From: Candidatus Woesearchaeota archaeon
GTDB lineage: Archaea; Nanobdellota; Nanobdellia; Woesearchaeales; JAZDKJ01
DNA length: 35,910 bases
Reading direction: 5' to 3'
Assembly: GCA_043815525.1 (NCBI GenBank)
Contig: JBDRIZ010000050.1
Location: forward strand, 1-35,910
The position numbers were made by a program, and so were the translations under genes. Below are positions 1,932 to 35,185 of this stretch, piece after piece. The first letter of the stretch is position 1; each line of letters begins with the position of its first letter. The notes beneath the pieces were generated by a model, which saw nothing but the letters and a program-made list of their open reading frames with translations, did no database searches and had not been told where the DNA came from.

Positions 1932-3956
1932 ATGACCAAGGTTGCTGTTGTCGCGTGTGATGGATATGATAAAGTAGATTTGGCCATTGGTCGCGCAATC
2001 AGCCTTCTTGGAGGCATAAACGCTTTTGTTAAAAAGAAGCAGAAAATTTTGATTAAACCAAACTTGTGCGATCCGTTGCCTCCTGACAAGGCTGCAACTA
2101 CTCATCCTGAAGTTGCAAAATCTGTTATTGGAATTGTACTGGGGACTGGTGCAACCCCTGTTGTTGGCGAGCTTTCCGCAGGCAGCATACCTGGCAGGAC
2201 TGAAGAGGCTTTTGTTGCCACAGGCATGAAAGACGTCTGCGCTTCCACAGGGACAAGACTTGTTGATTTTCAGAAAGGTAGCTTTGTTCAGCAACATATC
2301 AAGGAGTATCTATTCCTTGAGAAAACCGACTTTGCAGAAGCTGTCCTTGACTCAGATGCAATAATCAACCTTCCAAAGCTAAAGACTCACGGTGCATGTT
2401 ACCTCACTGGTTGCGTAAAGAATCTTTTTGGGTGTATCCATCCTGAAGAGAGGGAGTATATTCATTCGCATGGTGAGAACTCCCTCAACAATGGTGTGGT
2501 GGATATTTTTTCTGTTGTCAAGAACAAGGTGGTATTGAATATTATGGACGCAGTAGTTGCAATGGAGGGTGATGAAGGCCCAAGCTACGGCAACCCAAAG
2601 AGGTTGGGTTATATTATTGCTTCCACCGATGCTGTGGCAGCAGATGCTGTCGCAGCGAAAATTACAAATCACAATCCAATGGAGATACCGATAATAAGCG
2701 ATTGCCATCACCGCAGGCTTGGCTGCGGCATCCTCAATGACATAGAAATCGTCGGAGATGGCTTTCGCCAGGTGCTTGATTTCAAGGTCCACACAAACTA
2801 CCTAAACAGGCATGACAAGGATAAAAAATCAAGGCTGCAGCCAGTAATTACATCTGCCTGCACGAGATGCTCTGCTTGCGAGAAGAGCTGCCCTGCTCAG
2901 GCGATTTCCTATAGTGATGATAAGGCAAGGTTTGAAATCGACCAAATAAAGTGCATCAAGTGCTATTGCTGCCTCGAGGTGTGCATCTTTGCGGCAATAA
3001 AGCTTGAGACTTCTGCGAGGCCAGCAGACCTTATTCGCCTCGGCCTAAACTGCAACCACAAGTGCCTGTTCTGCACTGTTGGTTTGGACAGGACTCCTGA
3101 TCTGTCCACAAAAGAGGTAATGAACCTCATCGATGTTTTGGCTGCGAATGGTTCGCAGAAACTTGCTTTTACCGGCGGAGAACCAACTTTGAGGCCTGAC
3201 CTTTTTGCTCTGGTGGCATACGCACGATCAAGGGGGATTAAGATAATTGAGTTGCAGACCAACGCTTCAGAAATTTCCAAAGCAGGCTATGCAAAAGCAA
3301 TAACTGACGCTGGAATCAGCCATTTCATGGTCGCCCTGCACTCGGACAAGGAAGAGGTTTACAACAAGCTTACACAAAGCAGGCATTTCAAAAACGCTGT
3401 TGGAGGAGTAAAAAATCTGCTTAAGTTTCCTGTAACAATAACAATTTCGCATGTGATAAATTCAGAGAACTATAAGGGCCTTGAGTCGTTTGTCAATTTT
3501 GTGCATTCAGAATTTCTTGCAAAACCATGCATTTATTTTGGTTTTGTGAGGCCGAATGGCACTGCAAAGGCAAACAAGTGGATTGTTCCAAAGATGAGCC
3601 TTGTCGAGCCATACCTGCATAAGGCTTTTGCAAAATGCGCAGCTCTTGGGATTGTTTTCATGGTTGAGGGTTTGCCTTTATGCTACATGCAGGGTTACGA
3701 GCAGCATAACGACGAGACAAGGCGCCTGCTCTGTTCTCCGGCTGTGCATCTCGAGGCAGGTGTTGTAAGAGATGACACTCATAAGAGGCATCTTGTGGAC
3801 AATAAAGGAGAGGCAGAGTGCTGCGATGTCTGCAGCCTGTCCAAACTGTGCCCGAGAGTCTGGAAAGAGTATTCTGACATCTACGGGACTGGCGAGCTTT
3901 TTCCTGTATTTGACGAGAAACTAAAGGATAGTCTGAAGGTGTTTTTCAGTGGTTGA
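1932..3956 (+). CDS. tri-domain fusion: DUF362 + 2x[4Fe-4S] ferredoxin + small-family radical SAM
   Basis: The N-terminus has DUF362 hallmarks: KVAVVACDGYD, ILIKPNLCDP...ATTHPEV, LPKLKTHG...TGCVKNLFG, DAVVAMEGDEGPSYGNP. The ferredoxin motifs CTRCSACEKSCP and CIKCYCCLEVC start at nt 2859. The rSAM core has CNHKCLFC (nt 3051-3074), FTGGEPTLRPD, LPLCYMQGYE and CDVCSLSKLCPRVWKEY. AGGAG lies 9 nt upstream of the ATG. Confidence 0.92.
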   Translation: MTKVAVVACDGYDKVDLAIGRAISLLGGINAFVKKKQKILIKPNLCDPLPPDKAATTHPEVAKSVIGIVLGTGATPVVGELSAGSIPGRTEEAFVATGMKDVCASTGTRLVDFQKGSFVQQHIKEYLFLEKTDFAEAVLDSDAIINLPKLKTHGACYLTGCVKNLFGCIHPEEREYIHSHGENSLNNGVVDIFSVVKNKVVLNIMDAVVAMEGDEGPSYGNPKRLGYIIASTDAVAADAVAAKITNHNPMEIPIISDCHHRRLGCGILNDIEIVGDGFRQVLDFKVHTNYLNRHDKDKKSRLQPVITSACTRCSACEKSCPAQAISYSDDKARFEIDQIKCIKCYCCLEVCIFAAIKLETSARPADLIRLGLNCNHKCLFCTVGLDRTPDLSTKEVMNLIDVLAANGSQKLAFTGGEPTLRPDLFALVAYARSRGIKIIELQTNASEISKAGYAKAITDAGISHFMVALHSDKEEVYNKLTQSRHFKNAVGGVKNLLKFPVTITISHVINSENYKGLESFVNFVHSEFLAKPCIYFGFVRPNGTAKANKWIVPKMSLVEPYLHKAFAKCAALGIVFMVEGLPLCYMQGYEQHNDETRRLLCSPAVHLEAGVVRDDTHKRHLVDNKGEAECCDVCSLSKLCPRVWKEYSDIYGTGELFPVFDEKLKDSLKVFFSG

Positions 3957-4776
3957 CTTAGGCATTGGAGACAGATGCAACAGCAGTTGCATAATGTGCA
4001 CAACAGTGAGGCCAGAGGACAAAAAGGTGGAGAACCGCATGCTCTCAAAGGAAGAGGTCTTTTCGATGATTGACAAAATGGAGAGGCCACCTTACATAGC
4101 TATCACAGGTGGCGAGCCTACAATAAGAAAAGACTTAACCGAGATAGTAGGTCATGCCAGAAATCGTTTTCCAGCTGCAGAGATAAAGCTTTTGACAAAC
4201 GCCAGGATGGCCAGCTATCCTGACTACGCAAACGACTTGCTCAGCACAGGTATTGATGTGTATATAATCCCTTTGCACAGCCATCACCCTGACCTTCATG
4301 ATTTTGTAACAAGGACAAAAGGAAGCTTTGTTCAGACCGTACAGGGCATCAGGAATTTATCAAAGGCAAAGATCGAGATAAGGATAGTCATCCATGGGAT
4401 TAACTATCCATTCCTTCCAGAGACTGCAGAGTTCATCAGGGATAATTTCCCCGGCGCCTCGGTTGTTATGATTTATTTTGACATAATTGGCAGCGCATTC
4501 ATCAACAGGGATCGGCTTGTTGTGCAGATGACCAGGATAGCACCTTATCTCGAAAAGGCTATTGATGTCTTGCAGCAGAATGACATCCATACCTATCATT
4601 TTCCTTTATGCGTCCTTGGCCTGCGCTACCGCGATAGTGCCAAAGGTGTGACTGTTGTTGGTCACAGGATAATGTTCGCAGACAGTTGTGCAGCATGCAG
4701 CATGAAGTCTAAGTGTTGCGGGATTTGGAAAGCTTATGCAAAGCTGGTCGGTACCGGAGAGTTCAAGCCAATATGA
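3949..4776 (+). CDS. radical SAM protein, small paralogue family (short type)
   Basis: The GTG start overlaps the upstream stop by 8 nt. Motifs: CNSSCIMC, ITGGEPTIRKD, LHSHHPDLHDFVTRTKGSFVQTVQGIRNL, FPLCVLG, CAACSMKSKCCGIWKAYAKLVGTGEF. Confidence 0.9.
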   Translation: MVDLGIGDRCNSSCIMCTTVRPEDKKVENRMLSKEEVFSMIDKMERPPYIAITGGEPTIRKDLTEIVGHARNRFPAAEIKLLTNARMASYPDYANDLLSTGIDVYIIPLHSHHPDLHDFVTRTKGSFVQTVQGIRNLSKAKIEIRIVIHGINYPFLPETAEFIRDNFPGASVVMIYFDIIGSAFINRDRLVVQMTRIAPYLEKAIDVLQQNDIHTYHFPLCVLGLRYRDSAKGVTVVGHRIMFADSCAACSMKSKCCGIWKAYAKLVGTGEFKPI

Positions 4777-32420: not shown

Positions 32421-33947
32421 ATGAACATCAAGCTTCTCCTTGCCCCTGATTTTATTCCGCGGACCAAGTTTGCCTTGCCTCCGATGGGCATTGCCTCCAT
32501 TTCCGCAATGTTGAGGAGTGATGGCCATAAGGTTGAACAGGACGACCTGGACATCAAGTCGAGGAATATCGAATTATCTGTTTTCTCAAGGACAGATGAA
32601 ATCGAGCGCTATTTGTTGAAAAACAGTTCTTTTCCAGAACTTGAGCATACTCTTGACTCTCTCCTCAACCTCACCAGGACGAAAGGTTTTGACGTTTTTG
32701 GCCTTTCTGTTGCAGAGCCTTCCCATCTTGTTGCTGCTTTGTGCCTTGCAAAAAGGATTAAGGACCTGACAAAGGCGATTATTGTGATTGGTGGCAGGGT
32801 CTCAATTAGCCAGTCTTTGCTCAGGTACGGATTTATTGATTATGTTATCACCGGTGACGCAGAGCATTCGTTCTCTTCTCTTTTGCGCTGCCTCGAAGGC
32901 AAATCCAGTCTGCAGAATGTTCCTGGTTTGGCCTATAGGGATACTGCAGTAAAGCAAAATCCGGTTGTCCAAAGTGACTTGGAATCAATCCCTGCTCCTG
33001 ACTTTGAAGGCCTGCCAATTGAACTGTATTGCCATAACGCCTTTGACACTGTTGACCCTTACTATGAGACATACAACAAGCCTTTCCCGCTTGGCTCAGA
33101 TTCCAAGGTTTTGATGCTGCCGTACCTTCTCACCAAGGGTTGTAGTTTCTCGTGCTCTTTTTGCGGTGTTTCAGCCTCAAAAAAACAAAGCATATTGTAT
33201 AAGAGCGCTGAAAAGATTGCAGCCGAACTTGATAGTTTGAAGAAGAAATACAGGACAAGATATTTCTTTCTTATGGACAGCACCCTGAACTGCAGTTATA
33301 AGTGGCTTGAAGATGTGTGTGGCAAGATTAGTTCAGCTGATATCTTGTGGTCTGACTCTGCGACTCCCATGCACTTTCCTGCAGGCCTTCTCAGGAAGAT
33401 GCGCTCTGCAGGCTGCGTTAGGCTTACCTGGGGTGTTGAGTCTTTGTCAGATCCCATTCTGAAAAAGATGAGTAAGCCATTTACTGCAGAAATCGCAAAA
33501 TCCACCTTGAAGGACTCACATGATGCAGGCATCTGGAACTACACAAACTGGGTGGCTGGATTTCCGCACGAGACTGAGTCTATGCTTAACGAGACGCTAG
33601 CAAATATAAGAACCAGTAAAGCCTGGATAGATGACTACACTGTCACAGGCTTTATTTTGCAGCAGTCAGAAATCTACAACAGTCCGCAGAAGTATTGCAT
33701 TAATATTGGCGCAAAGTCTTCCTATCTTGACTCTGCAAAGGACAGGATGGAGACCGATTCCTTTGATGAGATTGGCGGCCTTTCATGGAAAGATAAGCAG
33801 AAGCAGATTGATGATTTTAGGCGAAGAATGGTGGCCGCTCTTGGCAATAGCTTGAATCCATTGCCAATGCATACTGTGTTTTACCTTTATGACAAGTTCC
33901 ATGATAAGGAGAGTGTACTGTCATGGCTTAGGAGTATAGGCTTATGA
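32421..33947 (+). CDS. B12-binding-domain-type radical SAM protein (subfamily trio, member 3)
   Basis: Motifs: MNIKLLLAPDF...PPMGIASISAMLRSDGHKVEQDDLDIK, TKGCSFSCSFC, ILWSDSATPM, FDEIGGLSWKDKQK. Confidence 0.9.
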   Translation: MNIKLLLAPDFIPRTKFALPPMGIASISAMLRSDGHKVEQDDLDIKSRNIELSVFSRTDEIERYLLKNSSFPELEHTLDSLLNLTRTKGFDVFGLSVAEPSHLVAALCLAKRIKDLTKAIIVIGGRVSISQSLLRYGFIDYVITGDAEHSFSSLLRCLEGKSSLQNVPGLAYRDTAVKQNPVVQSDLESIPAPDFEGLPIELYCHNAFDTVDPYYETYNKPFPLGSDSKVLMLPYLLTKGCSFSCSFCGVSASKKQSILYKSAEKIAAELDSLKKKYRTRYFFLMDSTLNCSYKWLEDVCGKISSADILWSDSATPMHFPAGLLRKMRSAGCVRLTWGVESLSDPILKKMSKPFTAEIAKSTLKDSHDAGIWNYTNWVAGFPHETESMLNETLANIRTSKAWIDDYTVTGFILQQSEIYNSPQKYCINIGAKSSYLDSAKDRMETDSFDEIGGLSWKDKQKQIDDFRRRMVAALGNSLNPLPMHTVFYLYDKFHDKESVLSWLRSIGL

Positions 33948-34857
33948 GCAGCGAAATGTTTCGCCAGCCGAAAAGGTTTGACGTACAGCTGGGGTATGGT
34001 TGCGATAATAAGTGCGTTTTCTGCTGTGTTGGTTTTAGGGACAAGAGAAAGAACAAGTCTGCAGGAGAGGTTCTTGAGTCTATTGCCAAAGCAAGGTTAA
34101 ATGGCGCAAAAAAGTGTGCTTCTCAGGAGGCGAGCCTTTTTCAAGGCCTGATATTGCAGAGTTGATTGCTGCAGCAAAAAATGAGGGCTTTTCTGATATT
34201 TGGGCAATCAGCAATGGTCGCATGCTTTCAAAGCAGGGCTTGGCGAAGAAGGTTGTCCAGGCAGGCCTGACAGGTATTTGCATAAGCTGCCACAGTTCCT
34301 GCAAGGATTTGAACAATTACCTCGCAGGCAAAAAGGACAATTTCAGGAAAGTGAAAAATGCATTGGCAAACCTCAGGCAGTACAAGATCAGGATTTCCAG
34401 CAATACTGTCGTAATGAAATCAAACTGCACAGAGCTTGCTCAAATAATTGATTTTCTAATCAGGAACGGTGTAAACGCTTTTTCCTCTCTGGTTTTTGTC
34501 ATGCCAAGCGAGAATGCCTGGCTGAACAGATGGCGGCTTGTTCCAAGGGTATCGTCTGTCATTCCATACGTCATTGAGGCCATAAATTTTGGTAAGAGCA
34601 AGGGTTTCTTGGTAAATACAGAAGGTTTTCCTTTCTGTTTGCTGCAGGGTTATGAAAACCATATTTCTGAGTTTGCCATGCCATTGGAGTGGTCTTCTGA
34701 TACTCCTGAGAGTTTCCATTCCGACCACTTGCAGCACATAAGGGATGGCAAGGCAAGAAGTGAGGAGTGCGGCAATTGCCTGTATAATAGTCAGTGCGGT
34801 GGCATCTGGGTCAACTACGCAAAGATTTATCCTTTGGATGAGTTTTGTACTCGCTAG
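33944..34857 (+). CDS. radical SAM protein, small paralogue family, split by a -1 frame change (33944..34165 plus 34114..34857)
   Basis: The first frame carries FDVQLGYGCDNKCVFCC and ends early at TGA 34163-34165. The second frame carries CFSGGEPFSRPD, CHSSCKDLNNYLAG, FPFCLLQGYE and CGNCLYNSQCGGIWVNYAKIYPLDEF. The frames join on gcAAAAAAGtg (34108-34114). Either a -1 slip or one extra A restores ...NGAKKVCFSGGEP... Confidence 0.8.
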
Positions 34858-35185
34858 TCCTTATCCTCTTTATTCCCTTCTTAAGGTATGGCAGGTCTTT
34901 TTCTATAACCATCCATACGCGTTCGATATTTACTCCAAAGTACGCGTGGCTTAATATGTCTCTTAGGCCTGCAATGTCTTTCCAGGGGATATCCGGGTAT
35001 TTCTCTCTAAAACCTGATGGAATGTTTTTGACAGCTTCTCCTATGACCTCCAGTTGCCTTATCACTGCGCTTTGCCTCAGCTTGTCTTTGGAAAATTTTT
35101 CCTTATTCAGTCCCAGGGTGAATTCCTCAATGTTTCTTATGCTTTCCAGGATGTCATCTACAAATAATCCTATGTCTCTTTTCAT
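34811..35185 (-). CDS. hepT: HepT-type HEPN (DUF86) toxin
   Basis: The 124-aa protein starts MKRDIGLFVDDILESIRNIEEF and has an Rx4H HEPN motif (RDILSH). An ATGA overlap links it to the upstream nucleotidyltransferase gene. The 3' end overlaps the convergent rSAM gene by 47 nt. Confidence 0.9.
   Translation of the reverse strand: MKRDIGLFVDDILESIRNIEEFTLGLNKEKFSKDKLRQSAVIRQLEVIGEAVKNIPSGFREKYPDIPWKDIAGLRDILSHAYFGVNIERVWMVIEKDLPYLKKGIKRIRTSEYKTHPKDKSLRS

Follow-up and report, generated by a model that had tools for sequence, protein, structure and literature searches.

The window, i.e., the whole 35,910-nt stretch of DNA analyzed here, is one entire contig of a 1.43-Mb groundwater MAG (236 contigs, 84% complete) and carries 12 copies of an HxsC-like radical-SAM family, one of which is split. 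Two ORFs, the second of them in the -1 frame relative to the first, represent the two halves of this single gene (Table 1). The 0 frame from its ATG reaches the junction as AAT GGC GCA AAA AAG TGT, after which the upstream ORF continues for 16 out-of-frame codons and ends at a TGA (34163-34165), the 17th codon after the AAG. The upstream piece carries the CX3CX2C cluster motif in the form CDNKCVFC, and the downstream piece supplies the GGEP SAM-binding motif, the remainder of the radical-SAM barrel, and a C-terminal region with four cysteines, with no second lesion anywhere along its length. The Pfam Radical_SAM profile (PF04055) aligns residues 15-56 of the upstream piece with its positions 2-47 (21.2 bits for this N-terminal piece alone) and residues 2-115 of the downstream piece with its positions 50-166 (42.4 bits, against a cut-off of 29.5). 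As the profile continues across both pieces, the break falls exactly at the junction, inside one domain; based on both motifs and the above-cut-off score, we assign the broken gene to the Radical SAM superfamily. The initial annotation, made from the letters of the DNA, had placed the split at an A_AAA_AAG heptamer, the stop at the above TGA, and the conserved continuation in the -1 frame from 34114, and had quoted the corresponding strings from the paralogs; all these coordinates are borne out by the sequence, and the quoted strings are indeed present in the window.

Table 1. Coordinates of the broken gene, its junction, and its flanking features in the window.
Feature	Coordinates	Strand	Description
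Upstream neighbor	32421..33947	+	B12-binding radical-SAM gene of 508 aa, unbroken both in the window and at the locus of the ortholog
Gene start context	33929..33947	+	AGGAG about 10 nt before ATG 33944; start codon overlapping the stop codon of the preceding gene as ATGA
Upstream piece	33944..34165	+	57 genuine N-terminal codons up to AAG 34112-34114
AGGT	34094..34097	+	Sole SD-like element upstream of the heptamer; 4 nt, 10 nt before the heptamer
Junction	34108..34114	+	A6 run 34108-34113 plus G34114, giving A_AAA_AAG in the X_XXY_YYZ phase of the 0 frame
Downstream piece	34114..34857	+	-1 frame, 247 codons, opens VCFSGGEPF
Weak stem tcagg/cctga	34123-34127 / 34147-34151	+	5 bp, 19-nt loop; absent from the minimum-energy fold
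Downstream neighbor	34811..35185	-	HepT-like toxin gene, convergent, 47-nt overlap with the 3' end of the broken gene

The ATGA overlap between the broken gene and the B12-binding radical-SAM gene preceding it suggests that the two are translationally coupled. The convergent HepT gene on the other side is arranged likewise in the orthologous locus described below. The cluster around the broken gene further includes glycosyltransferase-like, GDSL, and secreted-protein genes. Positions 34491-34645 of the downstream piece are matched with zero differences by a 155-nt contig of run X2, a groundwater metatranscriptome; this may mean that the broken gene is transcribed, or it may be carried-over DNA.

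The best-scoring named families for the intact ortholog and the paralogs are HxsC and HxsC4 (TIGR03977, NF038332), with the ortholog scoring far below the curated NCBIfam cut-offs of both (108.8 versus 500 bits for NF038332 and 84.4 versus 267.9 bits for TIGR03977). The ortholog and paralogs have in common with the HxsC/HxsC4 maturases the CX3CX2C motif, the GGEP motif, and Cys-rich C-terminal regions. Within the window, no HxsA, HxsB, or HxsD gene is seen adjoining the broken gene. In the nearest non-orthologous relative, with 48% identity (P0005; locus L013, JGI 3300049995), the neighborhood contains an HxsD-family gene (PF27806) at 3948-4376, which backs the tie of the paralog family to His-Xaa-Ser-type systems; the same locus also encodes an archaeal prepilin-peptidase-like protein and two more radical-SAM proteins. 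Many of the top matches in the protein search are proteins of 600-1400 aa with two to five matched stretches, i.e., tandem fusions of the domain, and the 674-aa product of the window ORF at 1932-3956 is a comparable tandem fusion of the small radical-SAM domain.

The close ortholog of the broken gene (P0003) is uninterrupted and codes for a 304-aa protein with 89% amino acid identity to the window gene read via a -1 shift. Its locus has the same gene order as the window, viz., B12-binding radical SAM, small radical SAM, HepT, and MNT; the called genes for the first two (568-2094 and 2091-3005) show the same 4-nt overlap, and the start region is nearly identical. This locus lies on a 4048-nt Logan contig of a ~90% identical relative, which spans 33519-34700 in the alignment of a public groundwater run to the region; the protein cluster to which the downstream piece belongs led to the same contig. 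In this relative, the stretches corresponding to 32590-32688, 33439-33519, and 34700-34782 are too diverged for alignment. Compared to the window, its contig has one uncompensated extra A behind position 34107, such that the ortholog reads GGC GCA AAA AAA TTG TGC (A7) at the site where the window reads GGC GCA AAA AAG TGT GC. The simple shortening of A7 to A6 offered by the initial annotation therefore holds as regards the loss of one base, but the comparison adds a substitution to it (TTG/Leu in the ortholog versus GTG/Val in the window), and the change is not a bare shortening. Val, Leu, and Ile are all found in the family at this hydrophobic position of the junction.

When 1.84 billion representatives were searched exhaustively without a profile, the above 48%-identical protein (328 aa) emerged as the sole further near relative; it is intact in two independent assemblies and its site reads GTA AGA AAG ATC. 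The ten paralogs of the window that could be aligned are likewise intact, with neither an A-run nor a shift at the site. No further orthologs were found in 40 related genomes, JGI metagenome contigs, and GTDB genomes. The broken pieces themselves are on record from one contig alone, i.e., that of the MAG containing the window, and an exact-protein look-up of the neighboring genes found no independent assembly of the same strain on record. In one groundwater sample (run X1; SRR27458547), contigs of the exact strain are found together with the ~90% relative having the same gene order.

With respect to the ortholog, dN/dS is 0.225 for the -1-frame part of the broken gene and 0.32 for its N-terminal part, with the adjacent B12-binding radical-SAM and HepT genes at 0.16 and 0.17, respectively. 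When the 48% relative is used as the outgroup, five amino acid changes fall on the window lineage versus seven on that of the ortholog, and all 28 of the columns that are invariant across the comparison set (seven relatives and paralogs) are kept in the broken gene. By these measures, the downstream frame appears indistinguishable from that of a gene under purifying selection. The gene thus shows the hallmarks of a young frameshift pseudogene, namely a single lesion, intact orthologs, and no accumulated decay. A downstream frame without decay implies a break that is very recent, artifactual, or bypassed, and its preservation fits an error or a frameshift-expressed gene equally well.

The surroundings of the heptamer offer little in the way of recoding signals. 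The 86 nt that follow it (34115-34200) have a predicted folding energy of -20.7 kcal/mol for pseudoknot-free structures, whereas shuffled versions average -22.75 (z=+0.69); 150 of the 200 shuffles reach an energy at least as low. The initial annotation had pointed to a weak tcagg/cctga stem and had seen no strong stimulator; the stem exists, its arms being codons of the conserved Ser-Gly and Pro-Asp, and the folding result agrees with the latter remark. No GGAGG occurs upstream of the heptamer, and the AGGT found there is part of conserved A-R-L codons and is identical in the intact ortholog. Across the genome, in-phase A_AAA_AAG occurs at 313 sites in 1260 long ORFs versus 144 expected from codon frequencies, and Lys-Lys is encoded as AAA_AAG in 29.7% of the instances after NNA versus 21.6% after NNB (OR 1.53, p=7e-6). 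The heptamer, being enriched and not avoided, is thus ordinary coding sequence in this genome, which argues that A_AAA_AAG alone is probably not very shift-prone in this organism. Its correct phase is also not improbable: of the 731 A7 runs in long ORFs, 312 (43%) have their first A at codon position 3, and any of these would become an in-phase A_AAA_AAN on losing one A. Neither the split nor the heptamer is conserved in the 89% ortholog, the 48% relative, or the ten paralogs. The programmed -1 frameshifting entertained in the initial annotation is accordingly set against an intact A7 ortholog, heptamer-free relatives and paralogs, and the want of an evident stimulator, and such a reading of the split gene is not supported. 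As an observation on the decoding apparatus, only five to six credible tRNA genes are detected in the 1.43 Mb of the MAG (ARAGORN, Rfam RF00005), nearly all of them intron-bearing, and ARAGORN at lowered thresholds returned only noise; the other tRNA genes of the MAG either are missing from the assembly or deviate too far from the standard models to be recognized.

The quality of the assembly was gauged by a census in which 1142 long-ORF proteins from 1.27 Mb of a same-genus genome (G001) were compared with the MAG by tblastn. Frame switches were seen in two of the 558 proteins with good matches, neither of them at a homopolymer: by appearance the first is probably two separate genes, and the second stems from a 31-nt insert in a POR-alpha gene. 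The reverse control gave a comparable picture (2/529). Inside uninterrupted alignments, which amount to 475 kb of conserved coding sequence, 838 A/T runs of at least 6 nt (289 of these of at least 7 nt) are read through, which places homopolymer miscalls in this assembly below ~0.4% per run. An intrinsic genome-wide scan, which is noisy for single cases, found homopolymers at 95 frame-switch junctions versus 82 expected, i.e., no excess, and 84% of the genome lies under ORFs of at least 120 aa, unlike an indel-ridden assembly. Systematic homopolymer miscalling is ruled out by the zero homopolymer breaks in 558 conserved genes. The contigs of the exact strain in groundwater runs X1 and X2 are few and short (151-174 nt), and all of them fall away from 34108-34114. 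The clean census favors a real mutation in a redundant accessory paralog, and a lone consensus error is compatible with it.

The above 31-nt insert (contig C92:1121-1151, with the gene on the minus strand) is unique, contains a 9-bp hairpin, and sits between ...PITPQ and THIVERLADY of a pyruvate:ferredoxin oxidoreductase alpha-type gene; it carries stops, shifts the frame, and is absent from the same-genus genome. Candidate explanations are a mini-intron within a protein gene, a small insertion, and an artifact of assembly. Ribosomal protein S8e, whose only matches among the control genomes are the four archaea, is present and marks the organism as an archaeon. Its gene sits at a contig end twice, with the same score each time (C1:8391-8633 and C93:23806-24048), and its C-terminus is on a third contig (C221:1950-2048); these placements are redundant or overlapping contig ends of the MAG.

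Taking these observations together, we lean toward the split being a young, lineage-private loss of one base in the Lys-Lys A-run of one of the twelve HxsC-like paralogs, a reading that we hold with slightly more confidence than doubt. The ancestral site would have been GCA AAA AAA TTG (Ala-Lys-Lys-Leu), as in the ortholog. In the lineage of the window, TTG would have changed to GTG, replacing Leu with Val, a residue accepted by the family at this site, and replication slippage would then have reduced A7 to A6 to give GCA AAA AAG TGT. Translation from ATG 33944 would consequently run to the TGA at 34163 and produce a 73-residue fragment with the Fe-S cluster loop only, and the remaining enzyme in the -1 frame would be unmade or made in traces via unprogrammed slippage. 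A_AAA_AAG would then be a by-product of an in-phase A7 run shortened before a G and not an evolved recoding signal. The lesion would have to be very recent, because the downstream frame still looks like that of a gene under purifying selection. An alternative path with an equal number of steps, comprising a synonymous change of AAA to AAG followed by the loss of one T from TTG, fits the sequences equally well; the lost base would then not belong to the A-run. As there is only one close ortholog, the polarity of the changes rests on this ortholog, the single 48% relative, and the paralogs; the order of the two changes, and the presence of the missing base as a real feature of the organism's DNA as opposed to a consensus error, are the parts of this account that we infer.

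Of the explanations in the initial annotation, the deletion and the homopolymer error both stand after the comparison with the ortholog. In the case of an assembly or sequencing consensus error, the organism would possess A7 followed by GTG, and hence an intact 304-codon gene, from which the MAG dropped one A. We consider this unlikely, albeit to be reckoned with: the break falls in a homopolymer and is seen in one assembly only, the frame downstream of it is perfectly preserved, the MAG is fragmented and has redundant contig ends, and at least one sample contains the ~90% relative alongside sequence of the exact strain, but the A/T runs read in frame in the census, the low per-run miscall rate that they imply, and the share of the genome under long ORFs all speak against it. 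Expression dependent on frameshifting, wherein a fraction of the ribosomes would slip by -1 on A_AAA_AAG via tandem re-pairing of tRNA-Lys to generate a full-length ...NGAKK-VCFSGGEP... protein, appears improbable to us and would mostly amount to tolerated leakiness rather than a selected device. That neither the split nor the heptamer recurs in any relative, that no downstream structure is found, and that in-phase A_AAA_AAG is enriched genome-wide count against such expression, despite the heptamer being in phase, the downstream piece being free of decay, and the -1 product fitting the family profile at every conserved column. The upstream AGGT does match the spacing of the corresponding dnaX element but is a 4-mer inside conserved codons. 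Furthermore, A_AAA_AAG owes its high slipperiness in E. coli to tRNA-Lys(UUU) being the sole tRNA-Lys. The intact ortholog, for its part, is not decisive alone, since the fucA1 orthologs of other Sulfolobales are full length too.

The A-tract (codons 55-57 of 304) might also toggle between A7 (on) and A6 (off) through slipped-strand mispairing, thereby switching one paralog of a probable surface-modification cluster. Both states do occur in nature, the relative having A7 and the window A6, in a tract that is early in the gene and in a cluster with glycosyltransferase-like, GDSL, and secreted-protein genes. However, the two states come from lineages ~10% apart and not from one population, none of the paralogs has such a tract at the site, and 6-7 nt is short compared to the tracts of known contingency loci; we regard phase variation as highly improbable. 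Finally, it is barely credible that a two-piece enzyme assembles from the 73-aa fragment with the cluster loop and a separately made 247-aa protein whose translation begins at GTG 34114: the cut lies within the first beta-alpha unit of the barrel, the first piece ends in a 16-residue out-of-frame tail, and the relatives are all single chains. Although a GTG does open the -1 frame, it is the Val codon of the hydrophobic position of the family. No SD-like motif precedes this GTG, which is a weak test given the patchy use of SD motifs in this organism and not disqualifying, since most window genes are without one.

The preferred reading of a recent one-base loss can be set beside the known systems. 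The established cellular archaeal case of programmed -1 frameshifting is the fucA1 gene for the alpha-L-fucosidase of Saccharolobus (Sulfolobus) solfataricus (PMC1616953, PMC8211752), which has an A-AAA-AAT site with a putative stem-loop and rare codons, and shifts with an efficiency of 5% in E. coli and ~10% in the homologous S. solfataricus cell-free system (PMC1616953). Mass spectrometry, mutagenesis, and in-vitro translation all attest to its trans-frame product (PMC1616953, PMC8211752). Both it and the window gene are archaeal genes with a short N-terminal ORF followed by a long -1-frame ORF, an in-phase A-rich heptamer, full-length genes in close relatives, and a predicted trans-frame product matching the intact homologs; however, the product of fucA1 is experimentally proven, whereas that of the window gene is a prediction, and the window gene is without a detectable flanking element. 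Other Sulfolobales orthologs of fucA1 are full length (review PMC8211752), and an intact ortholog by itself is therefore compatible with expression by slippage. The initial annotation had held that an A7 ortholog with an uninterrupted ORF would refute programmed frameshifting: such an ortholog, with a 304-aa ORF, does exist, and by that standard the programmed reading fails, but on its own the ortholog leaves room for leaky frameshift expression.

In the E. coli dnaX gene (tau/gamma) the site is conserved, and the shift ends translation early to yield a second functional product, whereas the window gene would need the shift for its sole functional product. Heptamer and phase are identical in the two, but the A_AAA_AAG of dnaX is preceded by a strong SD-like AGGGAG and followed by a hairpin (PMC8211752), and the window gene is without such stimulators. 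Young frameshift pseudogenes at A/T homopolymers have been described in archaeal genomes (van Passel et al., 2007, as cited in PMC8211752), and the window gene resembles these in showing a 1-nt indel in an A-tract, intact relatives, and membership in a redundant multi-copy family. It is of the same kind, if unusually fresh, with no second lesion and a normal dN/dS.

The finding is an ordinary one. For annotation, it means that the two ORFs are to be treated as one frameshifted radical-SAM gene, i.e., a pseudogene or a low-quality site, and neither as two genes nor as a case of recoding. More generally, an in-phase A7 Lys-Lys run that lacks one base mimics a canonical slippery heptamer, and a heptamer in the correct phase is accordingly weak evidence for programmed frameshifting; in light of fucA1, an intact ortholog taken alone is weak evidence as well. 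We consider it decidedly improbable that the break is real and that the Woesearchaeota ribosome, unaided by a stimulator, regains the frame on A_AAA_AAG often enough to be useful, the paralog being kept at low dosage by -1 frameshifting. If this were true, the gene would follow fucA1 as the second cellular archaeal case of -1 frameshifting and would be the first from a DPANN member.
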